A stretch of DNA of 64,000 nucleotides from Bacteroidales bacterium (GTDB lineage: Bacteria; Bacteroidota; Bacteroidia; Bacteroidales; 4484-276): NCBI GenBank assembly GCA_014860585.1, contig JACZJL010000143.1:2543-66542 (forward strand). Direction: 5' to 3'. Positions within the stretch are counted from its first letter, which is position 1. Every line of letters starts with the position of its first letter. The notes under the pieces are model-generated. The model saw nothing but the letters and a program-made list of their open reading frames with translations. It did not search any database and had not been told where the DNA came from. Below are positions 9,195-57,518 of this stretch, one piece after another. Both the position numbers and the translations under genes were made by a program.

Positions 9195-9278
9195 AAAATG
9201 ATACTCGTTGACGTTTTTAGAAAAATTATATGTATGGTTTAGTAAAACTATTCAGAGCCGGAGATGATTGAAAGTTAA

Positions 9279-9286
9279 TACTTTTG
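9279..9286 (+). promoter_or_regulatory. -7 promoter box TACTTTTG upstream of the ABC transporter genes
   Basis: Matches TAnnTTTG. It overlaps the track TTG start at 9284, which argues for the ATG at 9317 as the real start. Confidence 0.5.
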
Positions 9287-9316
9287 TTCCTCATAATTAA
9301 CCTAAAAGGACCTTTT

Positions 9317-10237: not shown

Positions 10238-10246
10238 GTTGAAGCC

Positions 10247-11584: not shown

Positions 11585-11587
11585 CCG

Positions 11588-12421: not shown

Positions 12422-12608
12422 CAGAAAAGGCAATCATATCCAGTCATTTTTCCTGGCGATTCCTTCTTTTTCTTTCCAGGCAGGAAGCTTTGAAATGTTT
12501 ATGGGCAGTACCATTTTACTCCTTAAACTAAGTGGGCGAAAGGCAATAAAATCGCCATTTTCCCGCTATATTCATCGTTCAGTAAAAACAGGACCGATAT
12601 CGGAGAAT

Positions 12609-17141: not shown

Positions 17142-17142
17142 T

Positions 17143-17778: not shown

Positions 17779-17934
17779 CGCAATACGTTTTGACTTTTCA
17801 TTTTTAGTTCATCTCACTTTCAAAATTCCTGATTAATGAAAACTATCTTGCGAATCATGTCAAAACTGTCGACATTTTTTTATTCGTCCAAATTTTTACA
17901 AAAGAAAAACTTACTCCATTAACCGACAAGTTCT

Positions 17935-17942
17935 TATCTTTG
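17935..17942 (+). promoter_or_regulatory. possible -7 promoter box TATCTTTG upstream of dnaN
   Basis: Matches TAnnTTTG but lies 160 nt upstream of the dnaN ATG, so the assignment is tentative. Confidence 0.3.
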
Positions 17943-18103
17943 CACACGTTTTCAGGGAATTGGCTTTTGTCCTATGTTTCAACTAAACCCGTTACTAACA
18001 AAAGGTTAATGAAAAAATGACGATCATCCTGATAGCGTAAAAGCATAATTTGTAATATTGTAGCTGAAAAAAATCGTTAAACAATAATTAAATCTTTAAT
18101 CAT

Positions 18104-19231: not shown

Positions 19232-19304
19232 TTCACCTGATTTTCCCGGTATTCCCAATAATCTGACAAGCGCATTCAATGCTGCGTAATCTTAACTGCA
19301 TGTC

Positions 19305-20210
19305 ATGTCTATCATTGTAAACAAGATATCAAAACTTTTCGGTGAACAAAGAGCACTTGATGAAGTGAGTTTTCACATCGAACCCGGGCAGATAGTAGGT
19401 TTTCTTGGCCCTAACGGCGCCGGAAAGTCAACGATGATGAAAATTCTCTCTTGTTTCATACCCCCAACATCCGGGCAAGCTTTAGTGAACGGATTTGATG
19501 TCATGGAGAACTCGCTCAAAGTGCGCAAGGTGTTGGGTTATCTGCCTGAGAACAACCCGCTGTATACTGAGATGTACGTCAAGGAGTACCTTGAGTTTGT
19601 CGGTGGAATCTTTAAACTGCCTAACCTTGACAAGCGCATTGAAGAGATGATTGAGATGACCGGTTTACAGGTTGAAAGACACAAAAAGATCGGAATGTTG
19701 TCTAAAGGTTATCGTCAAAGAGTAGGACTTGCCCAGGCGCTGATTCATAATCCGCAGGTACTGATACTCGATGAGCCTACTTCAGGACTTGATCCCAATC
19801 AGATTGTCGAAATCAGGAATCTGATCAAAACCATAGGTCACAATAAAACCGTAATGCTTTCCACACACATCATGCAGGAAGTAGAAGCGATCTGCGATCG
19901 GGTGATTATTATCAACAAAGGGAAAATTGTTGCTGACGGAAAAATTGAAAATCTCCAGCAACAAAGTAAGGGAAAAGAGGTGCTGCTTGTTGAATTCAGC
20001 AAAAACATTGAGCAGGCTAAAATTCAGGCCATCAGTAATGTTAAAGTTTTAGAGAAATGTGGTGAGAATACATGGAAAATAACAACCTCAGGGGGAATTG
20101 ATATCAGGCCGGCTATTTTTAAACTTGCAGTTGATCAGGACGCTACCGTGCTGACTCTTCAAAAGCAAGCCCACTCGCTGGAGCAGGTTTTCAGGGAATT
20201 GACCAATTAA
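19305..20210 (+). CDS. gldA: ABC transporter ATP-binding protein, GldA-like (gliding-motility-associated)
   Basis: Walker A GPNGAGKST, signature LSKGYRQR, Walker B VLILDEPTSGLD. The N-terminal 100 aa closely resemble Flavobacterium GldA as I remember it. gldF and gldG are not adjacent. Confidence 0.6.
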   Translation: MSIIVNKISKLFGEQRALDEVSFHIEPGQIVGFLGPNGAGKSTMMKILSCFIPPTSGQALVNGFDVMENSLKVRKVLGYLPENNPLYTEMYVKEYLEFVGGIFKLPNLDKRIEEMIEMTGLQVERHKKIGMLSKGYRQRVGLAQALIHNPQVLILDEPTSGLDPNQIVEIRNLIKTIGHNKTVMLSTHIMQEVEAICDRVIIINKGKIVADGKIENLQQQSKGKEVLLVEFSKNIEQAKIQAISNVKVLEKCGENTWKITTSGGIDIRPAIFKLAVDQDATVLTLQKQAHSLEQVFRELTN

Positions 20211-20391
20211 ATAAATTGATCGCTTCAGATACAATTAATCATAGTTTGAAATGAGTTCCTTGATGATAATACCTGTCAGTCAAACATATTTGGTGTTCAG
20301 GGTTTGCAGCAAGTTGGACATGCGACTGACTGAAAACATTCAGCTTTTTTAAAATTGTTCAATGCTTTTCCATCTTCTTATTAATTATTCC

Positions 20392-20399
20392 TATTTTTG
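20392..20399 (+). promoter_or_regulatory. -7 promoter box TATTTTTG upstream of metK
   Basis: Matches TAnnTTTG and implies a leader of about 147 nt before the metK ATG. Confidence 0.45.
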
Positions 20400-20552
20400 C
20401 AGCAGATTTTAATCTGATTTTCAGATTAAACCAATGGAGAAATTTGATTGATTGCAACCATTAAAAAAAATGCTAAAACAATTCGTTTTAACAGCCTTCC
20501 AGTCATCATTTCCTCCAATTTTCGGATAAAACAAATTTAAAATCATCAACAA

Positions 20553-21854
20553 ATGAGTTATTTATTTACGTCAGAGTCGGTGTCTGAAGGGCATCCCGAC
20601 AAAGTCGCCGATCAGATTTCAGATGCTTTACTCGATGAATTTTTACGTCATGACCCCAATTCAAAAGTTGCATGTGAAACGCTGGTTACTACTGGTTTGG
20701 TAGTACTAAGCGGTGAAGTTAAAACCAATGGTTATGTTGAAGTCCAGGATGTTGCCCGCAATGTCATTAACAAAATCGGATACACCAAGCCATCTTACCG
20801 GTTTGATGGAAATTCATGTGGTGTGATCTCAACCATTCACGAGCAATCAGGAGATATCAACCAGGGAGTCGAAAGACCTGATGAAAAAAATCAGGGCGCC
20901 GGTGACCAGGGCCTGATGTTCGGTTATGCCGTGCGTGAAATGGACAACCTGATGCCTTTGCCGATTGAACTGGCACACATTCTTATGCAGCAACTGGCAG
21001 CAATTCGTCACGAAGGAAAAGTAATGACCTACCTCGGCCCTGACTCCAAGTCGCAGGTCACCGTTGAATATGACGACGACAACACACCGGTACGCATTGA
21101 TACCATCGTAGTTTCCACACTTCACGATGAATTTGATACTGACCAGGCAATGTCCGCTAGAATCGAAGATGATGTAAGGAAATATCTGATTCCAAGGGCA
21201 GTTCAGGAAACACCGAAAAAATTCAGACATCTTTTCAAGGACGATTTTAAACTCCATATTAATCCTACGGGGAAATTTGTAACTGGTGGGCCACACGGCG
21301 ATACCGGTCTCACCGGACGCAAAATTATTGTTGACACTTACGGAGGTAGAGTAGCTCATGGCGGCGGCGCATTTTCAGGCAAGGATGCCTCGAAAGTTGA
21401 CCGTTCGGCGGCTTATGCCACTCGCCATCTGGCTAAAAACCTTGTAGCTGCAGGCGTAGCGGATGAAGTGCTGGTACAGGTGGCTTATGCCATCGGCCTT
21501 GCTAAACCAGTTGGTATTTTTATTAAAACTTTTGGAACAGCCAAAGTAACTGACGCTGACGGGAAGTTGATGAAGGACAGCCTGATCGCCAAAATTGTAG
21601 ATGAAATTTACGATCTAACGCCATACGCCATTATCAACCATTTTGGGCTGAAAAATCCTATTTTCTCCCGGACAACAACTTACGGCCACTTCGGAAGAGA
21701 TCACTACAAAGAGGATGTCGAAGTATATTTTGAAAATGACTCCACATTCAGGAAAACAGTTGACGGAAAAGAGCGGATTTTCAAAACTGTGGAGTTTTTC
21801 GGCTGGGAAAAGCTGGATTATGTGGATAAATTTAAAAAGGCGTTCAACATTTAG
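20553..21854 (+). CDS. metK: S-adenosylmethionine synthase
   Basis: 433 aa. Motifs [19 protein letters not shown] and GGGAFSGKD. Confidence 0.94.
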
Positions 21855-22824: not shown

Positions 22825-25800
22825 TTGAAAAAGCCAGTATCAATAAAAATCATCTTTTTGTTTGCACAGATCATCTGTTTGAACATGGGAATAACAGCCC
22901 AAAACAGGGATTATCTCTTTGATCTGATCACTTCTGAGAAGAGAACACTCAGTAAAGGGCTTTCTCAAAATACAGTTTATGCAATCGTACAGGACAGGCA
23001 AGGTTACTTGTGGATTGGCACCTGGGATGGACTCAACAAATACGACGGACTTAAATTTACTACATACAACAAGGAAAGTGGCCTGAGCAACGAGGTCATC
23101 AATTGTCTACTTGAATCTGATGATGGGAACCTATGGATTGGTACCGAAAACGGGCTTAACTATCTTGATCGCCGCAGCGGAGTCATCACTGTTTTCCAGA
23201 ATAACCCGATTGATTCCACTACCCTGAGCGACAATTGGATAAATCACCTTTTCCAGGCGCCTTCCGGTAAAATTTATATCGGAACACGACGTGGATTTAA
23301 TGTTTTAGACCCGGAAACGGGTAAAGTACAGCGGTATCAAAGCAGGGATGCCGCAAACCGCCGAACGAAAAGTAACAATGTCAGGTTTATCAACCGGTAC
23401 AACGACGAATACCTTGTCGGGACTGATTTTGGACTCGTGAGATACAACCCGGGGACACATGAAAATATAAGATACCTCAATCGACCGGATGATTCTGCAA
23501 GCTTAAGCAATAACCAGGTAAACGTAATTTTTCCGGATTCCGGTGGTCGTGTCTGGATTGGTACAGAAAACGGGCTTAATATTCTCGATTGGGATAAAGG
23601 AACCTTCACAGTTTTTCTTCATGACCCCACTGATAACTCAAGTCTGAGTAACAATTCGGTTAAAACGATTTTTCAGGATAATGCCGGAGTGATCTGGATT
23701 GGGACTGATGGTGGCGGAATTAGTGTTTTTAATGATGATAAAAAGAATTTTAAAAGAATTATTAGTCAACCGGGATTGCCACATAGCCTTAATAATAACC
23801 GTGTTTATTCGATATTTCAGGATAAAACCGGTAATATGTGGTTTGGAACTTTTAAGGGATTGAATAAAATTAACCGGTTCACCAGGACTTTTAACTTGTT
23901 CACTCATTCACATGGCGCTCCAAATACAGTGGTGAACAACCTGATCTGGTCGTTTTGCGAAATAGAACCCGATGTGTTCTGGGTTGGAACTGATGACGGT
24001 ATCAGCATCTTCGACCGCGTAAATAATTCATTCTCCTTATTTAGCCTTAACAACGGCCTTTCCAGCAAAAGAATCAGATCTATGATATTGGATGACCTTG
24101 GGAACATGTGGATTGGTACCCGGGATGCAGGGCTTAATAAATTAAATTTGGCGACAGGCAAAATAAAGCAGTTTCAACCTTCGATCCAATACCAGAACAG
24201 CCTTACGGATAATTTTGTGATCTCTCTCTTCAGGGATAAACGAGGGAAAATATGGGCAGGAACTCAGGGCGGTCTTAATTGTATTGACCCACAGACCGAG
24301 ATAATCAAAATATTCCAAAACAATCCCGATGATAGTTCTTCCCTTTCTCATAATACAGTTTATCAGATTATTGAAGATAAAGAAGGGGTAATGTGGCTGG
24401 CGACCAATGACGGATTAAACCGCTACAACCCTGATTTGAATACTTTCACATCATTTAGGCATACAACAGGTCAGCAAGAAAATATCTCATCTAACAGGTT
24501 TTTTTGTTTGTTCGAAGACAGTGAACGGAACTTTTGGGTTGGAACTCGCGGAGGCGGGTTGTTATTATTTGACAGGGCAAGCGGCCGTTTTACTCAATCC
24601 TATACTGTTGAGGACGGATTACCTAATAATGTAATTTACGGCATTTTAGAAGATGAAGATGGTCTGTTGTGGATGAGCACCAATTGGGGGCTGTCGAGGT
24701 TTGATAAGCATAATAACATATTCGTTAATTATGATGTAACCGATGGCTTGCAAAGTAGCGAATTTAATGCACTGGCATTGCTCAAAAGCAGCAACGGACT
24801 TATGTTTTTCGGTGGAATGAATGGATTTAACCTGTTTCATCCTTCTGAAATACAAAGCAATCCTGACGTTCCGGATATCCTGATCTCAGGATTTAAATTG
24901 TTTAATATTCAGCAACCTGGTGAAATCAGGCATAAGGATACAATAGCCCTTAAAGCTGAGGATAATTTTTTCTCTTTTGAGTTTACGGCACTCGATTTTA
25001 TAAACCCCCACAAAAGCCAGTTTGCCTATATCCTCGAGAACTATAACAATGACTGGACCTATGTTGACGGATCAAAAAATTTTGCTGAATACACCAAAGT
25101 GAATCCGGGTACATATTACTTCAGGGTAATCGGTTCAAGCAGCGATGGAGTATGGAACAAAGATGGTGTTGTAATCACTGTAATTGTCAGGCCTCAATGG
25201 CATCAGACCTGGCTTTTTCGCATTTCACTTTTCCTGATCTTGATGGCAGGAATATGGTACGTTGTTTACAGGCGTTATCGCTTTTTGCAAAAAAAGAACA
25301 TGACAAACAATAAGATGTTACAAATCGAAAATCAATTGCTCGACATACAACAAAAAGCCTTGCGCCTGCAAATGAACCCGCACTTTATTTTCAATTCACT
25401 CAACTCTATCCAAAGTTTCATTTTATCCAAGGACATAGACCAAGCCGTGAACTACCTTAGCAGGTTTTCCCAACTCATGCGAATGATCATGGTCAACTCG
25501 ACCGAATCAGTAATTCCTCTTTCAGAAGAAATACTCGCTATCAGTCATTACCTCGAAATAGAGAAACTCCGTTTCGACGACAAGTTTGCTTACACAATTA
25601 GCATCGCTCCTGAAATTGATGAGGAGTTTACCGGAATACCACCAATGATTATTCAACCCTACATCGAAAATGCTATTATTCATGGATTGTTGCACAAACC
25701 CGCTAAAGGGAGGATCGATATAAATTTTGAAAAAGAGGGAAGCAGTATCCATTGTATTATTGCTGATGATGGCATTGGGAGGGCAAAAGCAGAAGAAATT

Positions 25801-25980
25801 AAGAAACAGACTGGCTTGAATCAGAAGTCGAAAGGGATGATGATCTCTAAAGAAAGGTTAGATATTTTTAATAAAAAGGACCATGACCTTTTTTCGGTTA
25901 AAGTTACTGATTTGTTGGATGAAGCTGGAAACCCAGCCGGAACCAAAGTCGAATTATTCATTGCCTATCAGGAGATTTAA
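22825..25980 (+). CDS. sensor histidine kinase: double beta-propeller (about 14 Reg_prop blades) + Y_Y_Y domain + TM + LytS/YehU-type kinase core
   Basis: 1051 aa with a signal peptide. Fourteen W(I/V)GT..GL blades (WIGTWDGLNKY ... FFGGMNGFNLF) are followed by a Y_Y_Y-like segment (YYFRVIGSSSDGVWN) and a TM helix WLFRISLFLILMAGIWYVVY. The LytS-type H-box is NPHFIFNSLNSI and the ATPase motif is IQPYIENAIIHG. TTG start. Confidence 0.85.
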   Translation: MKKPVSIKIIFLFAQIICLNMGITAQNRDYLFDLITSEKRTLSKGLSQNTVYAIVQDRQGYLWIGTWDGLNKYDGLKFTTYNKESGLSNEVINCLLESDDGNLWIGTENGLNYLDRRSGVITVFQNNPIDSTTLSDNWINHLFQAPSGKIYIGTRRGFNVLDPETGKVQRYQSRDAANRRTKSNNVRFINRYNDEYLVGTDFGLVRYNPGTHENIRYLNRPDDSASLSNNQVNVIFPDSGGRVWIGTENGLNILDWDKGTFTVFLHDPTDNSSLSNNSVKTIFQDNAGVIWIGTDGGGISVFNDDKKNFKRIISQPGLPHSLNNNRVYSIFQDKTGNMWFGTFKGLNKINRFTRTFNLFTHSHGAPNTVVNNLIWSFCEIEPDVFWVGTDDGISIFDRVNNSFSLFSLNNGLSSKRIRSMILDDLGNMWIGTRDAGLNKLNLATGKIKQFQPSIQYQNSLTDNFVISLFRDKRGKIWAGTQGGLNCIDPQTEIIKIFQNNPDDSSSLSHNTVYQIIEDKEGVMWLATNDGLNRYNPDLNTFTSFRHTTGQQENISSNRFFCLFEDSERNFWVGTRGGGLLLFDRASGRFTQSYTVEDGLPNNVIYGILEDEDGLLWMSTNWGLSRFDKHNNIFVNYDVTDGLQSSEFNALALLKSSNGLMFFGGMNGFNLFHPSEIQSNPDVPDILISGFKLFNIQQPGEIRHKDTIALKAEDNFFSFEFTALDFINPHKSQFAYILENYNNDWTYVDGSKNFAEYTKVNPGTYYFRVIGSSSDGVWNKDGVVITVIVRPQWHQTWLFRISLFLILMAGIWYVVYRRYRFLQKKNMTNNKMLQIENQLLDIQQKALRLQMNPHFIFNSLNSIQSFILSKDIDQAVNYLSRFSQLMRMIMVNSTESVIPLSEEILAISHYLEIEKLRFDDKFAYTISIAPEIDEEFTGIPPMIIQPYIENAIIHGLLHKPAKGRIDINFEKEGSSIHCIIADDGIGRAKAEEIKKQTGLNQKSKGMMISKERLDIFNKKDHDLFSVKVTDLLDEAGNPAGTKVELFIAYQEI

Positions 25981-26063: not shown

Positions 26064-26816
26064 TTGATCAGAGCCGTTATCATTGATGATGAAAAGCAAT
26101 CACGCAGTACGCTGACCAGTCTGGTTGAGCGTTATTGCCACAATGTAATGCTGGTAGGCGAAGCTGATGGTGTCCGCTCCGGAATGGAGGTGATAAAGAG
26201 TACTCAGCCCGACCTTGTTTTTCTTGATATTCAGATGCAGGATGGGAGTGGTTTTAAGTTGCTCGACTACCTTGATAAAATTGATTTTCAGATAGTTTTT
26301 ACAACAGCATTTGATCAGTTTGCCATTAGGGCCTTTAAATACAATGCCCTGGATTACCTGCTTAAACCCATTATTCCTCAGGACTTGATTAATGCAGTGA
26401 ACAGGGCGGAATACATTAAGGAACAACAAAAATATCTTGAAGGACAAAATATTGACGAACTTATCGAAGCGCATAAAAAGGCGACCGATTCACAAAAGAT
26501 CACCCTCACAACTGCCGATAAAATCCATCTGATAATGGTAAACAATATAATAAGGTGTGAATCGGATAATTACTACACCAGGTTTTTCTTCACGGACGCG
26601 AAAACATTGCTTGTTTCAAAGACACTGAAGGAAACCGAAAAGTTGCTTCACGACTTCGATTTTATGCGTCCGCACAAGTCACATCTGGTAAATCTCCGCT
26701 ATATCAAAGGATTTTTAAAACATGAAGGCGGTTTTATTTTGATGTCAGATGGCACCGAAGTTCCTGTTGCCCGAAGAAAAAAAGAAATGGTTCTTAAAAT
26801 ATTAAATCAATTGTAA
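26064..26816 (+). CDS. LytR/AlgR-family response regulator (receiver + LytTR DNA-binding domain)
   Basis: 250 aa. The receiver has IIDDE, DLVFLDIQMQDGSG and LLKP. The C-terminal LytTR-like segment runs ITLTTADKIHLIMVNNIIRCESDNYYTRFFF...HKSHLVNLRYIKGF. Confidence 0.88.
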   Translation: MIRAVIIDDEKQSRSTLTSLVERYCHNVMLVGEADGVRSGMEVIKSTQPDLVFLDIQMQDGSGFKLLDYLDKIDFQIVFTTAFDQFAIRAFKYNALDYLLKPIIPQDLINAVNRAEYIKEQQKYLEGQNIDELIEAHKKATDSQKITLTTADKIHLIMVNNIIRCESDNYYTRFFFTDAKTLLVSKTLKETEKLLHDFDFMRPHKSHLVNLRYIKGFLKHEGGFILMSDGTEVPVARRKKEMVLKILNQL

Positions 26817-27091: not shown

Positions 27092-27613
27092 ATGGAAGAT
27101 TACATTTACTACTTAATGCTTGTTGTTTGGCTTGTTTTCTCATTTTATCAACAGAGTCAGAAGAAGAAGCGAAAAAAAGCTGAAATGGAAGCGGCTCAGG
27201 CCAGGCAGGAGCAGAACCGGCAGTATGATGAACAGAAACCGGCAGGAGCAGGCACAGAAGCGCCGCCAGACTCAGGATTCAAAAAGATACTCGAAGAGTT
27301 ACTGGGAGAGGAAGAAGTATTAGTGCCAGAATATGAAACGAGGCCGGTTGAAGTAACCAGAAATTTTGATGAGGAGAGCGTCAGTGAAAGAAATGAATAT
27401 CAGAAATACCTTGAGAGTAAAAGTTACAAGGAGGGCGAATCACTTGAGATGGGATACTTGTCAAGGAGTAGCCTGGAAGATAAGATCGTTGAACTGGAAA
27501 AGGACATGAAACTGCAGGAACATGAGTTGGAAGTGACTGAATCTCATTATTCAAGTGCGTTTAATTTGCGTAGTGCAGTGATTTACTCAGAGGTACTGAA
27601 ACGAAAATATTAA
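27092..27613 (+). CDS. hypothetical small membrane protein (N-terminal TM helix, charged E/K/Q-rich remainder)
   Basis: 173 aa. YIYYLMLVVWLVFSFY is followed by KKKRKK. No terminator is visible before the next gene. Confidence 0.5.
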   Translation: MEDYIYYLMLVVWLVFSFYQQSQKKKRKKAEMEAAQARQEQNRQYDEQKPAGAGTEAPPDSGFKKILEELLGEEEVLVPEYETRPVEVTRNFDEESVSERNEYQKYLESKSYKEGESLEMGYLSRSSLEDKIVELEKDMKLQEHELEVTESHYSSAFNLRSAVIYSEVLKRKY

Positions 27614-27730
27614 TTAAGTATCATTTTAAATAGAGGACTAAAAGAAAAAAGGTTTGGCCGTAAGATTTTTTTATTACTAATTTTACCGCCCTTTAGCAAC
27701 AAAGTATAATCTAACGTAAAATTATATGAT

Positions 27731-30700
27731 ATGTTAAAACATTTACTTTTAACAATTGTAGGTTTGTTGGCAATCAACCTGTTGGCATTTTCCCAAACAG
27801 GCTCCATTCAAGGGCAGATACTTGATGCGGATACAAAAGAACCCATTCCGTTTGCCAACGTGGCGATTTATTCGGGAGGTAACCTTCTGACAGGTGCCAC
27901 AACCGATTTTGACGGCAAATATGCTGTCAGGTCATTAAGACCCGGTAACTATTCAGTAAGGGCTTCTTTCGTTGGCTATCAGTCTCGAGAGATATCGGGA
28001 GTAGTTGTTCGTGCGGATCAAATTACCTTTTCGGACATTGAACTAAAGGCTACGGCTGAAGTTTTAGAGACAGTAGAGGTTACTGAATACAAGATACCGC
28101 TCATCTCCAAAGACCAGACAACATCCGGCGCCACCCTGACATCCGAGGAAATTGAAAAAATGCCCAACCGGTCAGCAACCTCAATTGCTACCACGGTGGG
28201 AGGTGTTTATTCAGATGCCGACGGCGGTAGCATCAGTATCCGTGGTCAGCGGCAGGAAGGGACAGTTTATTATATTGATGGAATGCGCGTATTGGGTTCA
28301 ACCAACATGCCTGAGTCGTCCATCGAGCAGGTAGCTGTTATTCTTGGTGGTGTACCCGCTAGGTTTGGAGATGCTACGGGGGGTATTATCAGTTTGACAA
28401 CAAAAGGCCCTTCTCGCGAATTCGGTGGCGGACTGGAGTTACAAACTTCCCAGTTTCTCGATAAGTTCGGCTATAATCGTCTTGGATTTAGTTTGCAGGG
28501 ACCAATTCTGACAAAAAACCAGGATGGTAACAAATCCTCAATCCTTGGCTATTTTATTGCCGGCGATGTTGTTTACCGTGAGGATGGAAGGCCTTCAGTC
28601 AGCGGGTCGATTGACAAGGTAACGGATGAGTATCTTGCCTATTTGAAAGAAAACCCACTGCGACCCTCAGGAACAGGTTTCGGCTCATTCGATAACAGTT
28701 TGTTTACAAAAAAAGCGGATACCGAAAGCATTGAAAATACGCAGAATACAAACTCTCTTGATGTGAGTTTGTCAGGGAAAATTGATATCAAAGTTTCTCC
28801 CACGGTCAATATGTCAATTGGTGGCTCCTACAACGTACAGGATTACAAGGCGTTTCAGTATGCAGGCTCTTTGTTTAACTACGAAAATAATCCCCATGTT
28901 TACAATAATACATGGCGTGTTTATGGCAGGTTAACCCAAAGATTTTCAACTGACCGGGAGAGTAGTTCCACAATCAGGAATGTTTTTTATACGATCCAGG
29001 CCGACTACTCGAAATTTTATCAGGTGGTTGAGGATGATTCCCATCGTGACGATCTTTTCAAATATGGGTATTTGGGGAAATATGATACTTACAAGCGCAG
29101 GTCCTACGAGATTGGAACTGATACCGTTAATGGTCAGATTTATTCCAATGTTTGGGTGCAAAATGCTTTCCAGGATACTGCATTCACTTTCCAGCCTTAC
29201 GAATTTAATCCTGTAGTAGCCCGCTATACGGAGCAGTATTATGAGTTTTATCCTGAGAAAGGCGATTGGAGAGATCCAGCTAATGGATACTGGCTTAATT
29301 CCAATCAGGTGCAACTTTATGGTGGTTTACTTAATGGACAGTCGCCTGATAATGTTTACACGATGTGGCAGGGTTTAGGGGCACAATACAATGGATACTC
29401 GGTAGCAAATAACTCACAGGTGGGGATTTCTGCCAATGCATCTGCCGACATCGGAAACCACGCGATTGAGTTCGGTTTGCAATACGAACAGCGCACAAAT
29501 AGCTCTTATGGATATGGTCCTGTAGGTCTTTGGACTATGATGCGTCAGATCACCAATGCGCACATCAACGAATTGGATAAAAGCAGTGCACATCTTGTTG
29601 TGGTGGATGGTGTTTTTCAGGATACTATCAATTATGACCGACTCTATAGTTTCACGGATCAGCGGATTTTTGATATCAATCTCAGGGAAAGACTTGGATT
29701 GAATGTTCAAGGTACCGATTGGATTGACATTGATTCTTACGATCCAAACACCCAAACCATCAGTTATTTCGATGCCAATGGAAATTTAAATAAAAACATT
29801 CCTCTCAGAGGAGGTTTATCCATTGATATGTTCAGTCCCGATGAGTTGTTCAACGATGGTTTCAGCTATGTAAATTACTATGGATACGATCCTTATGGTA
29901 ATAAACAATCAAGTCGTCCCGCGTTTGATGATTTTTTCAACAAAACAGAAAGCATCTTACTACCAAACGGGCAGACCAAATTCTATAATACACGGGATAT
30001 TGGAGCATTCCAACCTATTTACATGGCAGGTTATATCCAGGATAAATTTGCATTCGACGATTTGATTTTTAACATTGGAGTTCGTGTTGACCGCTTTGAT
30101 GCCAACCAGATGGTACTGAAAGATCCTTACCTGTTCTATTCAGCATATACTGCTGATGAGGTAAAAACAGTCGGTGGAAAGCAGGTGACCCATCCGGGTA
30201 GTGTTAGCGGTGATGCAGTGGTTTATATTGATAATAAAGACAATCCTTCAGAAATATTAGGATATCGCGAAGGAAGTGTATGGTACAATGCTACCGGTAG
30301 TGTTATTCAAAACCCTGAAATACTTGATGCAGGAAATGGCATTACACCGTACCTTGTTAACCCGGGGCAAAATCAAATTACATCAGATGTTTTTAAAGAT
30401 TATGATCCTCAGGTAAGTGTAATGCCCCGTATTTCATTCTCTTTCCCGATTTCTGATGAAGCACTTTTCTTTGCTCACTACGATATTCTTACCCAGAGGC
30501 CAACTTCTGCATTGAGAATGGATCCAACGGATTATTTTTTCATTGCACAACGTGGAAGTATCAATAATCCCAATCTAAAACCTGAAAAAACCATTGATTA
30601 TGAACTGGGCTTCCAGCAAAAGATAAGCAATTCATCCTCTCTTAAATTATCAGCATTCTATCGCGAAATGCGCGATCAGATTCAATATTTCCGCTACACA

Positions 30701-31495
30701 GGTGCTTACACAGGAGCTACTTCACTTTACGATAGTTACACCAATCTCGACTTTGCAACAGTTAAAGGGTTGACTGTTGAATATGACCTGAGAAGAACAA
30801 GCAATGTTAGAGCAAGGGTAAGTTACACGCTTCAGTTTGCTGACGGAACCGGGTCAAGTCCGAATACTGCTGCTGCACTTGTCAGCGCAGGCTTACCAAA
30901 CCTCAGGCAGGTCTTCCCGTTGGATTGGGACAGGAGGCATTCTTTTAACATAAGTCTTGATTACAGGTTTGGCGAAGGGAAAGGATATACCGGGCCAACC
31001 TCTACCAAGCAGATTAAAGGTACAGAACAGGTTAAAACCATTCAATGGTTGCAAAATACAGGCGCCAACTTTACGCTTAGCGGCGGTTCGGGAACACCTT
31101 TCACAAGGTCAGATAATATCATTGGAGTGTATGCCGGTGGCGGTGGTTATCAGCTGGACGGATCCATAAATGGTTCACGTTTGCCCTGGCAGTTTCGAAT
31201 TGATGCTCGTTTAGACAGAGATATTCAGGTGTCGAAAAAGCCCAATGCTACCACATACCTTAACGTTTATCTGCAATTTTTAAACCTTCTGGATACCAAG
31301 AACATCATCAGCGTTTATCCTGCCACAGGAAGTCCGGATGATGATGGTTACCTCACTGCTCCTGAATGGCAGAGTAACATCAATACATCAACTGACCCGG
31401 AAGCTTACCGCGATCTGTATGCATTGAGGATGAATTCGCCATTTAATTACAGTTTACCCCGCCAGATAAGGCTTGGTGTTGTTTTTAACTTTTAG
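27731..31495 (+). CDS. oversized TonB-dependent-receptor-type outer-membrane barrel (carboxypeptidase-regulatory-like domain + plug + about 1000-aa barrel)
   Basis: 1254 aa with a signal peptide. The CarboxypepD_reg-like segment is GSIQGQILDADTKEPIPFANVAIY...GNYSVRASFVGYQS. The plug-like segment is TSEEIEKMPNRSATSIATTVGGVY...ISIRGQRQEGTVYYIDGMRV. The C-terminus RLGVVFNF ends in an aromatic residue. Confidence 0.8.
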   Translation: MLKHLLLTIVGLLAINLLAFSQTGSIQGQILDADTKEPIPFANVAIYSGGNLLTGATTDFDGKYAVRSLRPGNYSVRASFVGYQSREISGVVVRADQITFSDIELKATAEVLETVEVTEYKIPLISKDQTTSGATLTSEEIEKMPNRSATSIATTVGGVYSDADGGSISIRGQRQEGTVYYIDGMRVLGSTNMPESSIEQVAVILGGVPARFGDATGGIISLTTKGPSREFGGGLELQTSQFLDKFGYNRLGFSLQGPILTKNQDGNKSSILGYFIAGDVVYREDGRPSVSGSIDKVTDEYLAYLKENPLRPSGTGFGSFDNSLFTKKADTESIENTQNTNSLDVSLSGKIDIKVSPTVNMSIGGSYNVQDYKAFQYAGSLFNYENNPHVYNNTWRVYGRLTQRFSTDRESSSTIRNVFYTIQADYSKFYQVVEDDSHRDDLFKYGYLGKYDTYKRRSYEIGTDTVNGQIYSNVWVQNAFQDTAFTFQPYEFNPVVARYTEQYYEFYPEKGDWRDPANGYWLNSNQVQLYGGLLNGQSPDNVYTMWQGLGAQYNGYSVANNSQVGISANASADIGNHAIEFGLQYEQRTNSSYGYGPVGLWTMMRQITNAHINELDKSSAHLVVVDGVFQDTINYDRLYSFTDQRIFDINLRERLGLNVQGTDWIDIDSYDPNTQTISYFDANGNLNKNIPLRGGLSIDMFSPDELFNDGFSYVNYYGYDPYGNKQSSRPAFDDFFNKTESILLPNGQTKFYNTRDIGAFQPIYMAGYIQDKFAFDDLIFNIGVRVDRFDANQMVLKDPYLFYSAYTADEVKTVGGKQVTHPGSVSGDAVVYIDNKDNPSEILGYREGSVWYNATGSVIQNPEILDAGNGITPYLVNPGQNQITSDVFKDYDPQVSVMPRISFSFPISDEALFFAHYDILTQRPTSALRMDPTDYFFIAQRGSINNPNLKPEKTIDYELGFQQKISNSSSLKLSAFYREMRDQIQYFRYTGAYTGATSLYDSYTNLDFATVKGLTVEYDLRRTSNVRARVSYTLQFADGTGSSPNTAAALVSAGLPNLRQVFPLDWDRRHSFNISLDYRFGEGKGYTGPTSTKQIKGTEQVKTIQWLQNTGANFTLSGGSGTPFTRSDNIIGVYAGGGGYQLDGSINGSRLPWQFRIDARLDRDIQVSKKPNATTYLNVYLQFLNLLDTKNIISVYPATGSPDDDGYLTAPEWQSNINTSTDPEAYRDLYALRMNSPFNYSLPRQIRLGVVFNF

Positions 31496-31554
31496 ATCAA
31501 TTTTTTCAATCGCTTGATTTTATGAATAAAGCAAATAATAAAATAAGTATAGAG

Positions 31555-34500
31555 ATGAAAAACATTTTACACACGCTGTTGGTGTTTGCTGTGATGAGCT
31601 TAATTGTCCAGCAGGGCTATGCAGAAAAATATGTTAACGAAGAAAAGTCCAGGGAGATTAAAGCCAGTGCAGCAGGATGTCCTGCAGGTGCAGGTTTTGC
31701 TTTCCTTGACGTAAATAATGTTCGTGCCCGAATCAATACTGGCGGAGATATGTGGTGGAATTTCGACAGGGCACAATATTATGTACCCGCCAACACAGAA
31801 AAAACCTCCATGTTTTCTGCTTCTCTCTGGATTGGTGGTCTTGACGTTAACGGTCAGTTGAAACTTGCCGCTCAGCGTTACAGGCAGGTTGGTATTGATT
31901 ATTGGCCAGGCCCCCTTTCGATGGTTGATGCATCCATAGATGAAGAAACCTGCGCCCAGTATGATCAGATGTTCAGAATGACCCGTCAGATGGTGGATGA
32001 CTACCTTGCATGGTGGAACAGCACAAATCGTGCTGAAGAGTTTCCCGGCTATGTAATCCCCGATGAAATCCTGAATTGGCCGGCACACGGCGACGTAGCC
32101 AAAGGACAAAGTTATTACCTGGCGCCTTTTGTGGATACTGACGGTGATGGAAATTACGATCCGACACAAGGCGACTATCCCTATTATGATATAGACAATA
32201 GCCTGTGCCGCACCCAAACCCCTACAATGGATGCCCAGTTTTACCATCCTGACGATCCTGAAAACTGGAAGTATGGGATTCTTGCCGACCAGGTCATTAA
32301 AGGCGACCAAACACTTTGGTGGGTTTTTAATGATAAAGGAAATATCCACACTGAAACCAAGGGAGCGGCTATTGGTTTGGAAATCAGAGGCCAGTCTTTT
32401 GGCTTTGCTACAAATGATGAAATTAATAACATGACCTTTTACAGTTATGAAATCATTAACCGTTCAACTTTTTCGTTGACCCAAACCTATTTTAGCCAAT
32501 GGGTTGACACTGACCTTGGCTACGCCTGGGACGATTATGTAGGTTGTGATGTGGGAAGAGGACTTGGTTATTGCTACAATGGTTTCCCAATTGACGGAAC
32601 CGGTGAGGTTGAAGCCTATGGGGAACAACCTCCTGCCATCGGAGTGGACTTCTTCCAGGGGCCATATATGGATCCGGATAATACCGATAATCCAAAATTT
32701 ATTTTTGTTACCAATGCACAGGGAGATACTATTGATCAAATTCAAATTTGTGATGTAAGTATCAATGGTGTGAACTTTGGTGATGGTATTGTGGATAATG
32801 AGCGTTTTGGTATGAGAAGATATGTTTACCACAATAACACTTCACCCAACCCGGCAACTACCGACCCGAGTTTAGCACCGGAATATTACAACTACCTCAG
32901 AGGAATCTGGAAAGACAATACTAAAATGTCCTATGGCGGAACTGCACATGTGAGCGATGCAGCAGCAGTTGGTCCTGATTGTGACTTTATGTTTCCAAGC
33001 GATACTGACCCGTGCAACTGGGGTACTGGAGGCGTGCCACCCAATGATGGTTTTAACCAGGATGGCAAATACTGGACAGAAGAAACCCAAAATAATCAAC
33101 CCGGTGACCGTCGTTTCATGCAGTCTGCCGGCCCGTTTACCCTGGAACCAGGTGCTGTTAACTACATCACTGTGGGTATCCCCTGGGCACGTGCTACTAC
33201 CGGTGGTCCCTGGGCTTCAGTAGAATTATTGCGAGTGGTGGATGATAAATGCCAGGCCTTGTTTGATAACTGCTTTAAAGTGCTTGATGGGCCGGATGCT
33301 CCGGACCTTTCCTTTCTTGAAACAGATCGCAAGCTCATTGTCTTTATATCCAACCGTAAAGGATCAAACAACTACAAAGAATCTTACTCAGAAATTGATC
33401 CTAACATTCAATTATTGGAGGATTCTATCCCATTACCTCAAAATGTCGAAGATTCATTGAGAACCTATTTCTTTGAAGGTTACCAAATCTACCAGCTTCG
33501 CTACCCGGAAGTTAGTGTCGAAAGCCTTGATGATCCTGACCTGGCTCGCCTGGTGGCTCAGTATGATATCAAAAATGGAATTTCCAAGTTAGTCAACATT
33601 TATTTCGACCAGTCCATAGGGTTTAGTGTTCCGGTAGTTGAAGTTGTTGGACGTGATGAAGGGATTAGCCACTCCTTTGAATTAACACAAGACGCCTTTG
33701 CTGAAAAAGATCCTAAGTTGGTCAATCATAGGCAGTATTATTTCATGGTGTTGGCTTACGCGTTCAATGAGTATTCGCCTTACAGTGAAGAACCCGGCGT
33801 TCTTAACGGTTTGTTTGGGCAAAAAAGACCTTACCTGGCCGGAAGGAAGAACATAAAAGTTTACACGGCAATTCCTCATAAAACCGTTGGTGGAATGGAG
33901 TTGAATTCCGAATATGGAGACGGCTTCCCAATTACCCGATTGCAGGGTCAGGGTAACGCCGGTGTGGGGATTGACATGAGCCCTGAAAGCATTCAGGAAT
34001 TGCTTGCTAAACCACCTATTGAATATCCAAATTACGTTAATCCTCCCTATGGCATTAAGTCGTTGCAACAAAAACTGATTCCTTCTACGGTTATAGGCGA
34101 TGCGAACTATCCGATAGTTTACAACCCGAAATATCTTCAGGGCAAAGGTCCATTAAAAGTTAAGGTTGTAGATCCAATGAACATTAAAAGCGGGAAATTC
34201 AGGGTTGAACTTTTCGATGTGGAAATGCCATTTACAGTGTCAACTGCCAACGATACAATTTATGACACGCTTACAATTGCCAGAGCAAACTGGAGACTTA
34301 TTGATGAGGGTGGTAATAGTTGGATATCAGACACTACTATTGACCAACGAAATGAACAGATAATTCCAGAACTGGGTGTATCTGTGAATATGGAACAGAT
34401 TGCTTTCCCCGGAGAAACAAATGCTGTAAATAATGCTTTTATCAAGTCAGAGATCATCTATCAGGACAGCTCGCAGCTTTGGTTCTCTGGTGTACCTGAT

Positions 34501-35928
34501 TTTGATGTTCCTTCAAATCCGCTCAACTGGATAAGATCAGGTGTTTATGTTGACGGAAACAGCCCGTATAACGACTGGAATATGAGCGCCGACAGCCCAC
34601 TTGATGCCGGGCAGTATTATGAAAAAGTTATCCCGATGACTGTCAGGATATTTGGTGAGGACTTGACCGGAGGAACATGGGCGCCTTTCCCACTGGTTGC
34701 TACACGGATTAATATGGATTATGGTCATGGTCCTGCACCAACTGGATCAAAACCTGCAGATTTAAAAAATATTTCCAGTATTGATGTTGTACTTACAAGT
34801 GACAAATCACAATGGACCAGATGCCCGGTTGTGGAATTGTGTCCTGACCCAATGCTCGCTGAAGGAAATGCACCTCAATATACCTTGCGTCGTTCACCTT
34901 CAGTGAACAAGGATGGAGTATTTGCTGACCCGCAGGCCGCACCAAGTATGGATCCTGCTGATGCAAATTACGTCTCTGCAACAGGAATGGGCTGGTTCCC
35001 TGGTTATGCAATTAATTTGGAAACCGGTGAAAGGTTAAATGTAATGTTTGGTGAAAACTCCTGGCTTGCTGGCGACAATGGAAGGGATATGCAATGGAAC
35101 CCTACTTCCACAGTAGTAAATGAAACAAATTTTGCCCCGGTATTAGGTGGTATGCATTATCTCTATGTTATGGATAATCGCAAGGTTATCATTGGATCTG
35201 GAGCAAATGCTTTTAACTTCGATTTTACTGCCTATGATGCTGGTGTGAAACTGTATCATACGTTCAAAATCAGTTCAGACTCCCTACCTATCGGTACCGT
35301 GGTTCTCCCGGCAATTTACCAGAGTTGTCAGTGGGTTAATATCCCGTTAAAAGCTGAAAATCAACCCTGGTTGCCTGCCGGCAATGATGCAACCATAAAA
35401 ATTAGGGTTGGGAAACCATATCAGCGGTATTTATCTAGAGCAGTGGAGCCAGACAATCCTGTGAATACGAACAATTTTAATCCGGCTTATGAATTTGAGA
35501 CTACCGGAATGGAGGCTGTACCGTTCTCAGCACAACAAAATGATCAGCACCTTGACATGATCAATGTAGTACCAAATCCTTACTACGCTTATGCCGATGG
35601 GCCAGGTTATGAACGAAATCAACTGGATACCAGGGTAAAGATTATCAATCTTCCACCTCGTTGTACTGTCACAATCTACAATATCAGCGGGACACTCATA
35701 CGACAGTATAACGTTGATAAAACAGGCATTCCCAACCCACGGGCCTCCACTAATGGCGAGGATACAGATGCACAGACCTCTATTGATTGGGATCTGAAAA
35801 ACTTTGCCGGAATTCCTATTGCCGGAGGTATTTATTTGATTCATGTCAAAGAATCCGGCGGCCGCAACGGTGAGCGCGTGATCAAATGGTTTGGCACAAT
35901 GAGACCTATTGACCTGAATACGTTCTAA
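31555..35928 (+). CDS. giant secreted hypothetical protein with an atypical T9SS-like C-terminal sorting domain
   Basis: About 1457 aa from ATG 31555 (track start 31522). The signal peptide is MKNILHTLLVFAVMSLIVQQGYA. Cysteines come in pairs and there is a Ca-binding-like loop DTDGDGNYD. The last 120 aa or so read VVPNPYYAY...TVTIYNISGTLIRQY...IDWDLKNFAGIPIAGGIYLIHVKE...KWFGTMR. I recognise no catalytic motif. Confidence 0.75.
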   Translation: MKNILHTLLVFAVMSLIVQQGYAEKYVNEEKSREIKASAAGCPAGAGFAFLDVNNVRARINTGGDMWWNFDRAQYYVPANTEKTSMFSASLWIGGLDVNGQLKLAAQRYRQVGIDYWPGPLSMVDASIDEETCAQYDQMFRMTRQMVDDYLAWWNSTNRAEEFPGYVIPDEILNWPAHGDVAKGQSYYLAPFVDTDGDGNYDPTQGDYPYYDIDNSLCRTQTPTMDAQFYHPDDPENWKYGILADQVIKGDQTLWWVFNDKGNIHTETKGAAIGLEIRGQSFGFATNDEINNMTFYSYEIINRSTFSLTQTYFSQWVDTDLGYAWDDYVGCDVGRGLGYCYNGFPIDGTGEVEAYGEQPPAIGVDFFQGPYMDPDNTDNPKFIFVTNAQGDTIDQIQICDVSINGVNFGDGIVDNERFGMRRYVYHNNTSPNPATTDPSLAPEYYNYLRGIWKDNTKMSYGGTAHVSDAAAVGPDCDFMFPSDTDPCNWGTGGVPPNDGFNQDGKYWTEETQNNQPGDRRFMQSAGPFTLEPGAVNYITVGIPWARATTGGPWASVELLRVVDDKCQALFDNCFKVLDGPDAPDLSFLETDRKLIVFISNRKGSNNYKESYSEIDPNIQLLEDSIPLPQNVEDSLRTYFFEGYQIYQLRYPEVSVESLDDPDLARLVAQYDIKNGISKLVNIYFDQSIGFSVPVVEVVGRDEGISHSFELTQDAFAEKDPKLVNHRQYYFMVLAYAFNEYSPYSEEPGVLNGLFGQKRPYLAGRKNIKVYTAIPHKTVGGMELNSEYGDGFPITRLQGQGNAGVGIDMSPESIQELLAKPPIEYPNYVNPPYGIKSLQQKLIPSTVIGDANYPIVYNPKYLQGKGPLKVKVVDPMNIKSGKFRVELFDVEMPFTVSTANDTIYDTLTIARANWRLIDEGGNSWISDTTIDQRNEQIIPELGVSVNMEQIAFPGETNAVNNAFIKSEIIYQDSSQLWFSGVPDFDVPSNPLNWIRSGVYVDGNSPYNDWNMSADSPLDAGQYYEKVIPMTVRIFGEDLTGGTWAPFPLVATRINMDYGHGPAPTGSKPADLKNISSIDVVLTSDKSQWTRCPVVELCPDPMLAEGNAPQYTLRRSPSVNKDGVFADPQAAPSMDPADANYVSATGMGWFPGYAINLETGERLNVMFGENSWLAGDNGRDMQWNPTSTVVNETNFAPVLGGMHYLYVMDNRKVIIGSGANAFNFDFTAYDAGVKLYHTFKISSDSLPIGTVVLPAIYQSCQWVNIPLKAENQPWLPAGNDATIKIRVGKPYQRYLSRAVEPDNPVNTNNFNPAYEFETTGMEAVPFSAQQNDQHLDMINVVPNPYYAYADGPGYERNQLDTRVKIINLPPRCTVTIYNISGTLIRQYNVDKTGIPNPRASTNGEDTDAQTSIDWDLKNFAGIPIAGGIYLIHVKESGGRNGERVIKWFGTMRPIDLNTF

Positions 35929-35965
35929 TGATAAATAGATTGGAAATTTTAAATAACTAAGAATT

Positions 35966-37033
35966 ATGAAAAATTTTTATAGATACACAGTCGCAATTCT
36001 TTTATCGGTGGCTTTCCTGCTTCCTATCCAAAACCTGGTTGGCGGTAACCCGGACCGCTCTGGTCAGGCCGGTGCTTCTGAACTGCTGATCAACCCTTGG
36101 GTTGGAAGTTCTGGTTGGGGTGGTGCAAGTATAGCCTGTTCAAGGGGTCTTGAATCAATATATACGAACGTTGCCGGAACCGCCTTTACTAAAGGAACGG
36201 AATTGATTTTTGCCAACACCAATTATCTCAAAGGTGCTGACATCAATATTATGAACTTTGGGTTTTCACAGCGCGTTGGTGAAGCTGGCGCATTATCAAT
36301 AGCCATCATGTCAATGAACTTTGGTGATGTCAACAGAACTACCATTTTAAATCCTGATCCGACAGATGCCAATATTGGAACATTTGCACCTAACCTGCTT
36401 AACATAAGTATTGCATATGCTAAAGCATTTTCAAACAGCATATATGGCGGTTTCAACCTGAAGATTATCTCCGAATCTATCGCTGACCTGAGTGCCCAGG
36501 GTATTGCCATCGATGCAGGTATCCAATATGTAACAGGACCCCAGGAGAATGTGAAATTCGGTATTGCCCTGAAAAATGTTGGTCCTACAATGAAATTCTC
36601 AGGTGATGGATTAACCTTCAGAGGTTTCTACAATCAGTTTTCACGCACTTCACCCACTTTTGTGCAGCCATCCTCTGAATTTGAACTCCCGGCTCAACTT
36701 TCAATCGGTGGAGCTTACGACTTCCTTTTTAGCGAAAACAGATTTACTTTGGCGGGTGCTTTCATTTCAAACTCATTTACAAAAGACCAGTTTACCCTCG
36801 GTGGCGAATTTGCGCTAAAATCTTACCTTGTGCTTCGTGCAGGTTATACTTACGAAGATGGAATCACAAGTAAGAGCGAGAGGACCACAGTATTCACAGG
36901 ACCAAGTGCAGGCTTGTCAGTTCAGATTCCACTTAATAAAGAGAAAGGATCAATTTTTTCGGTTGATTATTCTTACCGTGATACCGATCCTTTCAGTGGC
37001 GTTCATAGCATTGGAGCACGAATTAGTCTTTAA
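35966..37033 (+). CDS. PorV/PorQ-superfamily-like outer-membrane beta-barrel (possible cargo-specific T9SS adaptor)
   Basis: 355 aa with a signal peptide. The N-terminal motif GQAGASELLINPWVGSSGWGGASIA...NVAGTAF has the pattern of PorV/PorQ-type barrels. The remainder is an alternating beta-strand pattern. The gene starts 37 nt after the giant CTD protein. Confidence 0.45.
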   Translation: MKNFYRYTVAILLSVAFLLPIQNLVGGNPDRSGQAGASELLINPWVGSSGWGGASIACSRGLESIYTNVAGTAFTKGTELIFANTNYLKGADINIMNFGFSQRVGEAGALSIAIMSMNFGDVNRTTILNPDPTDANIGTFAPNLLNISIAYAKAFSNSIYGGFNLKIISESIADLSAQGIAIDAGIQYVTGPQENVKFGIALKNVGPTMKFSGDGLTFRGFYNQFSRTSPTFVQPSSEFELPAQLSIGGAYDFLFSENRFTLAGAFISNSFTKDQFTLGGEFALKSYLVLRAGYTYEDGITSKSERTTVFTGPSAGLSVQIPLNKEKGSIFSVDYSYRDTDPFSGVHSIGARISL

Positions 37034-37082: not shown

Positions 37083-37111
37083 AAGGCCCTTTTTTCGGAA
37101 AGGGTCTTTTT
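37083..37111 (+). terminator. intrinsic-terminator-like hairpin (3' end of the upstream operon and/or a greA leader terminator)
   Basis: AAGGCCCTTT-tttcgg-AAAGGGTCTT forms a 10-bp stem (one G-U pair) followed by TTTTTC. It lies downstream of the -7 box at 37064-37071 and 42 nt upstream of the greA ATG. Confidence 0.6.
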
Positions 37112-37152
37112 CTATTATTAAGATGAATTAAAATTCTTCAAAAATTCGGATT

Positions 37153-55274: not shown

Positions 55275-55283
55275 GCACATCCT

Positions 55284-57509: not shown

Positions 57510-57518
57510 GTTTTTGGT

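Follow-up and report, generated by a model that had tools for sequence, protein, structure and literature searches.

Three adjacent genes of an uncultured Bacteroidales bacterium, which we call ORF1, ORF2 and ORF3, may together encode a TonB-powered import station whose surface subunit, exported through type IX secretion (T9SS), is seated on a PorV-like barrel of its own through an uncleaved sorting domain; we give this reading about an even chance. The genes lie in a 64,000-nucleotide stretch of contig JACZJL010000143.1 (the window), in which a sequence-only reading had singled them out as a candidate undescribed outer-membrane module. ORF1 is a TonB-dependent transporter (TBDT) of unusual size, ORF2 a very large secreted protein of an uncharacterised family, and ORF3 a member of the PorV/PorQ family of outer-membrane barrels. 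They follow one another with operon-like spacing, in an order strictly kept in related genomes, with conservation of the trio across hundreds of species of Bacteroidales, and all three have counterparts, again as neighbours, in a second phylum.

In the scheme that we propose, the trio would be one operon, and its products would assemble in the outer membrane into a complex of three parts that takes up substrate with energy from TonB. ORF1 would act as the gated channel, for which it has a plug, a putative TonB box and an N-terminal extension in the style of SusC. ORF2 would be the extracellular working subunit, carried across the inner membrane by Sec and across the outer membrane by the T9SS, and its sorting domain would not be cleaved off but would stay bound to ORF3, as PorZ stays on PorQ and PorU on PorV. 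Held in this way beside ORF1, ORF2 would capture, and perhaps process, a substrate for ORF1, filling the role that the SusD, BtuG, XusB or HmuY lipoproteins have for other TBDTs of the Bacteroidota. In a wider form, the proposal is that across Bacteroidota and Rhodothermota the trio may serve widely as an alternative to SusC/SusD. A third kind of PorV-family barrel, dedicated to the subunit, would hold it for good by way of a sorting domain that is both uncleaved and specially extended, and the version found in Lentimicrobiaceae-like Bacteroidales is fixed beside greA in nearly every examined locus. This wider form is tentative, and we would hold it with somewhat less than even confidence.

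Conservation of the trio

The layout given by the sequence-only reading, three same-strand reading frames separated by 26-59 nt and 37 nt, is confirmed by the coordinates (Table 1). The range in the first gap reflects the start of ORF2: the interval is 26 nt from the opening of the frame and 59 nt from M12, which is most likely the start, because a typical signal peptide, MKNILHTLLVFAVMSLIVQQGYA|EK, follows there. As had also been read, the 173-aa ORF0 stands upstream with no terminator-like site in the scan of the 117 nt between it and ORF1, and the block is closed by a hairpin and T tract directly 3' of ORF3 and 5' of greA, whose 11-pair stem is the best terminator-like site of the scanned region.

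Table 1. Coordinates of the trio, its parts and its surroundings in the window, and its counterpart on plasmid pRMAR01
Feature	Position	Strand	Description
Two-component system upstream of the trio	22825-25980; 26064-26816	+	Reg_prop/Y_Y_Y sensor histidine kinase; LytTR response regulator (Pfam)
ORF0	27092-27613	+	173 aa; N-terminal transmembrane helix and charged tail, as judged from the translation
ORF1	27731-31495	+	1254 aa; oversized TBDT
TonB-box-like LETVEVTEY	28064-28090	+	ORF1 aa 112-120, between N-terminal extension and plug
ORF2	31555-35928 (frame open from 31522, 1468 aa)	+	1457 aa from M12; secreted, uncharacterised family
ORF2 conserved core	32305-33768	+	aa 251-738, DQTLWWVFND to YYFMVLAYAFN; shared with the middle protein of the Rhodothermus marinus trio
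Probable variant type-A T9SS C-terminal domain of ORF2	35560-35925	+	aa 1336-1457; conserved extension KWFGTMRPIDLNTF at end
ORF3	35966-37033	+	355 aa; PorV/PorQ-family outer-membrane barrel
Terminator-like hairpin and T tract	37083-37118	+	hairpin 37083-37108, stem of 11 pairs, 4 G-C; T-rich tail
pRMAR01 locus with the trio (L090)	8638-21117 of the plasmid record		RMAR_RS14120/14115/14110; TBDT 897 aa, hypothetical protein 1132 aa, PorV/PorQ-family protein 355 aa

That these genes belong together is argued above all by their synteny. Of 83 fetched loci, which span ORF2 identities of 43-88%, 82 have ORF1 as the direct upstream neighbour of ORF2 and 80 have ORF3 as its direct downstream neighbour; the few misses are mostly at contig ends. 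Median gaps over the loci are 42 nt between ORF1 and ORF2, 38.5 nt between ORF2 and ORF3, and 108 nt between ORF3 and greA, which, together with a HIT-family gene, follows the trio in 75-77 of the 83. Such an arrangement is far beyond chance, and the check that the sequence-only reading had proposed, recurrence of the trio as neighbours, comes out in its favour. The genomes with the arrangement include a 5.2-Mb genome, a metagenome-assembled genome labelled 'Chlorobi' and that of the cultured Lentimicrobium saccharophilum.

In the same loci the median identity to the window proteins is 51-56% for the trio, 63% for the HIT-family protein and 71% for GreA; for outer-membrane and surface proteins the trio is well conserved, diverging only moderately faster than its two neighbours. 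Compared locus by locus, the identities correlate more closely within the trio (r = 0.87-0.93) than with GreA (0.64-0.80), with the tightest pair being ORF1 and ORF2 (r = 0.93); the pattern as a whole is partly due to shared phylogeny. Bins labelled Omnitrophica WOR_2, Chloroflexota and Chlorobi (L038, P0220, P0396) carry trio genes 41-57% identical to those of the window, with full trios at L038 and L086; these occurrences are probably binning or labelling errors.

A homologous trio in Rhodothermus marinus

A protein search of plasmids with ORF3 led to a PorV/PorQ-family gene on plasmid pRMAR01 of R. marinus, where the gene order is an FG-GAP protein with a T9SS tail, a TBDT, a hypothetical protein, the PorV/PorQ-family protein, an Amidase_2 protein and a class-A beta-lactamase-like serine hydrolase; a tblastn search of plasmids with the ORF2 core gave no match. 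The plasmid TBDT aligns with ORF1 at 31% identity (E 3e-30) across the N-terminal domain, the plug and the C-terminal barrel, and the barrel protein aligns with ORF3 at 27% identity (E 2e-24). The middle protein, WP_144295523.1, matches ORF2 twice, once over the core, aa 251-738 (hhalign probability 97.3%, E 2.2e-11, 396 columns), and once at the tail (32% identity, E 6e-14), where it lacks the extension described below. By these sequence comparisons, all three window proteins are homologous to a trio from another phylum.

A second R. marinus trio is known from the literature, in that the alginate utilisation locus of this species contains a tonB-hypA-hypB set whose genes its authors call hypothetical (PMC9530828). 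It is annotated as TBDT, T9SS type-A protein and PorV-PorQ protein, its likeness to the window trio being one of annotation, and a trio of matching annotation in such a locus ties the architecture to nutrient uptake. In both R. marinus trios the gene order is that of the window. However, the plasmid TBDT is of normal size, the middle proteins are shorter than ORF2 (1132 aa on the plasmid, about 726 aa for HypA), that of the plasmid ending in a sorting domain without the extension, and the neighbours are catabolic or hydrolytic genes, whereas those of the window trio are housekeeping genes. The description of the module as like a polysaccharide utilisation locus (PUL) does not hold for the window locus, with its housekeeping flanks, its two-component system and no carbohydrate-active enzymes (CAZymes); the annotation-matched trio of R. 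marinus does lie within an alginate PUL.

On pRMAR01 the trio is flanked by a protein with an N-acetylmuramoyl-L-alanine amidase domain and by the beta-lactamase-like serine hydrolase, neighbours that suggest a peptidoglycan-derived substrate; a type I-U CRISPR-Cas set is found a few kb away. The flanking hydrolases, the greA/HIT neighbourhood in 75-77 of 83 loci and the only moderate divergence of the trio would all suit a clade-specific machine for envelope maintenance (handling lipid, lipopolysaccharide or peptidoglycan fragments) or for signalling, rather than a nutrient importer of the PUL type. We consider this improbable, as Pfam and NCBIfam detect no envelope-biogenesis domain in any of the three proteins and the second R. 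marinus trio sits in an alginate locus.

ORF1 is an oversized TonB-dependent transporter

Profile searches, which the sequence-only reading had put forward as a check, returned a TBDT with N-terminal extension and plug, a sorting-domain-like tail and a PorV/PorQ-family barrel. The TBDT signatures that it had seen in ORF1 all reappear: behind a signal peptide (AFS|Q) lie a CarboxypepD_reg-like N-terminal extension (aa 25-105; 66.5 bits, above the Pfam cut-off) and a plug (PF07715, aa 128-219; 36.1 bits against a cut-off of 23.9), followed by a large barrel that ends in the terminal phenylalanine of ...GVVFNF. Homologues of ORF1 carry PF00593. Between extension and plug lies LETVEVTEY, for which the consensus of 70 homologues reads LExxEVVxYK and which, by its likeness to the eye to the SusC-type (D/E)EVVV(T/V)GY, is a putative TonB box.

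An AlphaFold2 model of residues 108-1254 has a predicted local distance difference test score (pLDDT) of 74.6 and a predicted template modelling score of 0.75, with most of the barrel at 85-95. Foldseek places it among TBDTs (FptA, PhuR, PirA, FpvA, OprC and FhuA; E 3e-20 to 1e-16, probability 1.0, about 1,050 aligned columns), which settles the fold; a search of PDB sequences with ORF1 gave nothing useful. Since the matched structures have 630-770 residues, ORF1 is truly oversized, as had been proposed. The surplus of about 320 residues over the 897-aa Rhodothermus homologue falls after the plug and ahead of the C-terminal third of the barrel, and is modelled as very long strands and two loop subdomains.

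For all its SusC-style extension, ORF1 is not, by the profile scans, a member of the SusC/RagA family. TIGR04056 aligns over its model positions 3-87 only (42.7 bits against a cut-off of 368, E 2.5e-11), and in the NCBIfam and Pfam scans the match covers the first ~90 residues and leaves the barrel without one. In agreement with the earlier reading that no SusD-like gene follows, the next gene, ORF2, has no SusD or RagB match in Pfam or NCBIfam.

A large TBDT without SusD partner recalls Oar of Myxococcus xanthus, which likewise has a carboxypeptidase-regulatory-like N-terminal domain. Oar is reportedly required for the secretion of the protease PopC, and is not known to have T9SS or PorV-like partners. 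One study describes Oar as needed for protein secretion (PMC6434023). ORF1 could by analogy be an outward-acting barrel of this kind that exports or assembles ORF2 or a surface polymer, with ORF3 as the receiver, a role in biogenesis that the fixed place of the trio beside housekeeping genes would suit. Against such a direction speak the use of the SprA/Sov translocon, not of a TBDT, by cargo with sorting domains (PMC10202324), the trio of matching annotation within the alginate catabolic locus, and the Pfam result for ORF1, with matches to CarboxypepD_reg and Plug only and to no Oar-type barrel model, the presence of an Oar-specific model in the library being unconfirmed. Overall we regard an outward role of ORF1 as quite unlikely.

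ORF2 belongs to a large uncharacterised family

In ORF2, an N-terminal half of high conservation is followed by Ig/FN3-like domains in the middle and by a sorting-domain-like tail at the C-terminus. Its signal peptide, which ends at about GYA|EK, and the DTDGDGNYD loop, at residues 194-202, are as first described, and the protein contains 14 cysteines. As there is no lipobox cysteine, ORF2 is not a lipoprotein, unlike the partners of the SusD type.

The body of the protein has no Pfam or NCBIfam family match, a 14-sequence profile found nothing at E <= 1 among PDB sequences, and a Pfam scan of 36 diverse family members detected no core family, only tails and Ig, PKD or cadherin add-ons. An AlphaFold2 model of aa 35-1234, built on a 78-sequence alignment, has an overall pLDDT of 59.7. 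It is unconfident (<50) over aa 35-585, probably because all aligned sequences are at least 58% identical, and reaches about 70-90 over aa ~595-1234, the region of the Ig/FN3-like domains. A Foldseek search of the PDB with this model gave nothing significant, the best matches being antibody Fab chains. The sequence-only reading had recognised no catalytic motif in ORF2, and Pfam, NCBIfam, PDB sequences and Foldseek agree in matching it to no characterised enzyme or adhesin. An identity as PorU or PorZ is rejected, since ORF2 has neither a C25 peptidase domain nor a propeller.

The family is a large one. ORF2 has more than 6,600 homologues, of which the closest 120 are full-length, 53-88% identical and from Bacteroidales and Lentimicrobiaceae genomes or metagenomes; in a search with its N-terminal 666 aa, 6,819 clusters at 50% identity were matched, including 2,049 with E <= 1e-30. 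A scan of one genome per species yielded at least 595 confirmed relatives, and among the matches listed in it ORF2 identity is 83% at the nearest locus and about 64% at those of Lentimicrobiaceae. The 14-sequence alignment has a mean column identity of 64%, very high for a surface protein, and the core shared with R. marinus belongs to the best-conserved stretches in the family.

A probable variant sorting domain with a conserved extension

The tail of ORF2 combines a sorting-domain sandwich with a conserved extension of about 10 residues whose last residue is aromatic. Its best NCBIfam match is the C-terminus of PorZ (25.5 bits, E 4e-6); among 36 diverse family members, 12 match PF18962 at E <= 0.01, and many close homologues are named type-A sorting-domain proteins by NCBI. 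Close relatives nearly all end in ...GGxYLIHV..GEKVxKWFGxxRPxDLxxF. Of the 120 closest homologues, 119 carry the terminal RPxDLxxF (window 35899-35925), as do 100 of 150 representatives; it is missing from relatives with canonical tails and from the Rhodothermus homologue. Within the members that have it, the tail is as conserved as the core, which is more in keeping with a lasting protein-protein contact than with a signal to be discarded; the extension may insert into the ORF3 barrel.

A minority of the family carries a canonical type-A tail (PF18962), and a few members a type-B tail (CHU_C). Tail type and gene context go together: the four canonical-tail members with readable contexts (P0289, P0410, P0395, P0391; loci L084, L085, L088, L089) have no TBDT or PorV-like neighbour, and extended-tail members have both barrel neighbours (L001-L083, L086, L087, L091). 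The exception is L085, where an extended-tail paralogue heads a tandem cluster without TBDT, on a contig that stops before a possible ORF3.

The solitary members bear on a further possibility, that ORF2 works at the surface on its own, whether as adhesin, as coat or S-layer-like protein or as enzyme, and is seated on ORF3, with the TBDT co-expressed, at most acting in the same pathway, and never in contact with it. Besides the canonical-tail members that stand alone, tandem paralogues point this way, with a second ORF2 copy after greA at L017, three paralogues of mixed tail types in a row and no TBDT at L085, and the order ORF2 - ORF3 - ORF2 at L087; so do the PKD, cadherin or Big_9 domains, typical of adhesins, in some members. 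Against it stand the TBDT immediately upstream in 82 of 83 loci at gaps of about 42 nt, a pairing that persists across phyla in R. marinus, and the identity correlation of ORF1 and ORF2, the tightest of all. We therefore think it unlikely, if the strongest of the alternatives, and retain the proposal of an ORF2 that works for ORF1.

ORF3 is a distinct PorV-family barrel

The PorV/PorQ pattern that the sequence-only reading saw at the N-terminus of ORF3 extends over the whole protein: aa 37-353 align with positions 4-324 of the 326 of NF033709 (PorV_fam) at 128.9 bits, against a cut-off of 90. The more specific models are missed by far, namely the PorQ equivalog NF033711 (77 bits against 220, N-terminal half only), the PorV equivalog NF033710 (50.8 against 250) and PorV2, NF052325 (41 against 325), and an assignment to PorP/SprF is likewise rejected (PF11751, 17 bits against a gathering cut-off of 22.3). 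With the family cut-off passed and those of its named members and of PorP/SprF missed, ORF3 is a distinct member of the PorV family; the same result sets aside a generic FadL or OmpA-type porin. The homologue at L001 passes Pfam PorV (32.8 bits against 27), and a PDB sequence search with ORF3 gave nothing useful. By analogy with the PorV-family pairs discussed below, we propose ORF3 as the cognate anchor of the ORF2 sorting domain.

PorV-family paralogues are common in Bacteroidota, and ORF3 might on that account be one more general PorV/PorQ paralogue, with an adjacency of the three genes that means nothing. Yet about 80 species-level genomes, and a second phylum besides, keep their order and spacing, ORF3 lies far under the PorV and PorQ equivalog cut-offs, and in a single search with ORF3 the barrel of the R. 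marinus trio (E 7e-17) comes out nearer than Parabacteroides PorQ (E 3e-7). Chance adjacency is effectively refuted by the synteny, and we attach almost no probability to it.

Comparison with known systems

Which known systems does the trio resemble? In SusC/SusD, RagAB, BtuB-BtuG, XusA-XusB and HmuR-HmuY, as here, a TBDT with a carboxypeptidase-regulatory-like extension is encoded beside a surface partner that captures substrate for the barrel, and this is the likely logic of the trio also. The partner is a different one, however: with about 1,450 aa, ORF2 is unrelated to SusD, BtuG or HmuY, has a tail like the sorting domains of T9SS cargo and is accompanied by a third gene, that of a PorV-like barrel of its own.

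The anchoring, for its part, would follow PorQ-PorZ and PorV-PorU, in which a PorV-family barrel holds a T9SS-exported protein by its retained sorting domain; protection and holding of uncleaved sorting domains has been described for PorQ with PorZ and for PorP with type-B cargo, and is generally proposed for cognate PorV-like barrels (PMC10202324). The trio departs from these pairs in that ORF2 has neither the propeller nor the C25 peptidase, that the pair is encoded with a TBDT, and that the tail is extended by RPxDLxxF. In the order of a cargo gene and then a dedicated anchoring barrel gene, it recalls SprB-SprF and other type-B cargo with PorP/SprF-like barrels, from which it differs in the family of ORF3, in the type-A-like tail of ORF2 and in the lack of gliding adhesin repeats. 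In BamG-BamH, too, a surface protein is held by the extracellular loops of a FadL/PorV-like barrel within a larger outer-membrane complex (PMC12578637), but BamH is a lipoprotein, the complex is built around BamA, and only the general fold class is shared with ORF2 and ORF3; an identity of the trio with the accessory proteins of the Bacteroidota barrel assembly machinery was rejected, there being no sequence relation. By analogy, then, the trio would function like a pair of the SusCD or BtuBG type joined to an anchor of the PorQ-PorZ type, as a member of none of these families.

Full-text literature searches turned up the R. marinus gene map (PMC9530828) and no paper in which the three genes are described as one system. 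The claim that the module is undescribed accordingly holds for the system, and not quite for the genes, a trio of which is drawn in that map as hypothetical. From its conservation and its Rhodothermus homologues, the trio appears to be an outer-membrane uptake complex of an undescribed kind. If this is true, it joins TonB-dependent uptake and type IX secretion, two systems of the Bacteroidota that are usually treated apart; it gives the PorV family a new job, as the permanent anchor of a transporter subunit; it explains how SusD-less relatives such as Rhodothermus equip their uptake loci; and it provides a role for a protein family of thousands of members without annotation or structural model. 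With L. saccharophilum and R. marinus, the trio is open to study in culture.

Points against the proposal

Several observations weigh against an import station of this design. The fixed place of the trio beside housekeeping genes and its good conservation are unusual for substrate-specific uptake. Its flanks in the window encode a sensor kinase, a LytTR regulator, GreA, a HIT-family protein, L-aspartate oxidase, GroEL, MetK and DnaN, and Pfam and NCBIfam find no CAZyme or sugar catabolism gene among them. The tail of ORF2 stays below the cut-offs of both sorting-domain models, TIGR04183 (18.6 bits against 23) and PF18962 (11.9 against 27), so that the tail noticed at the outset is upheld, with the PorZ match, as sorting-domain-like. 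GldE is the only T9SS gene within the window, and the core T9SS genes were not seen there. Canonical-tail paralogues and the tandem cluster at L085 stand without a TBDT. Both the function and the fold of the conserved half of ORF2 are left unassigned by Pfam, NCBIfam, PDB and Foldseek searches. In the model of ORF1, the plug segment (aa 108-225, model residues 1-118) has a pLDDT below 50 despite the clear Pfam plug, which may be due to the alignment at the trimmed N-terminus. Finally, the physical and functional coupling of the three proteins, including a contact between ORF2 and ORF1, is proposed from gene neighbourhood only.

Neighbouring genes and further features

Upstream of the trio, the membership of ORF0 in the module is uncertain. 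Its Pfam match is weak and below the cut-off, it is found in just 26-27 of the 83 loci, at 26-50% identity, and its position is taken by small ORFs at L001, L086 and L091. Between ORF0 and ORF1, at 27682-27710, lies a sigma-70-like promoter match (TTTACC-17-TATAAT, 10/12), from which ORF1 may have its own transcription start; the indication is weak, since the Bacteroidota consensus differs. The Y_Y_Y kinase and LytTR regulator are a possible regulator of the trio, with an occasional linkage: the pair occurs at the matching upstream site in 32-34 of the 83 loci. A 249-aa minus-strand ORF within ORF2 (31600-32349) was judged a chance ORF. Elsewhere in the window, among housekeeping genes, a 1548-aa ORF (12495-17141, +) has no Pfam or NCBIfam match.

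Two further observations concern the T9SS in this organism. The GldE gene (45967-47322, +) scores 539.8 bits in NCBIfam against a cut-off of 376, and at 9284-11584 an ABC ATPase with a sub-threshold GldA match adjoins an ABC-2 permease; together these hint at a gliding/T9SS gene set. At 54006-58532 (+), a HmuY-like protein of 422 aa (PF14064, 36 bits; TIGR04183, 36.6 bits) stands 9 nt ahead of a heme/B12-type TBDT of 741 aa with a CarbopepD_reg_2 N-terminal domain, behind which comes a second HmuY-like protein of 337 aa, with no PorV-like gene. Here a protein with a genuine type-A sorting domain is encoded directly upstream of a TBDT, which makes T9SS-delivered partners of TBDTs plausible in this organism and lends support to the uptake reading of the trio.

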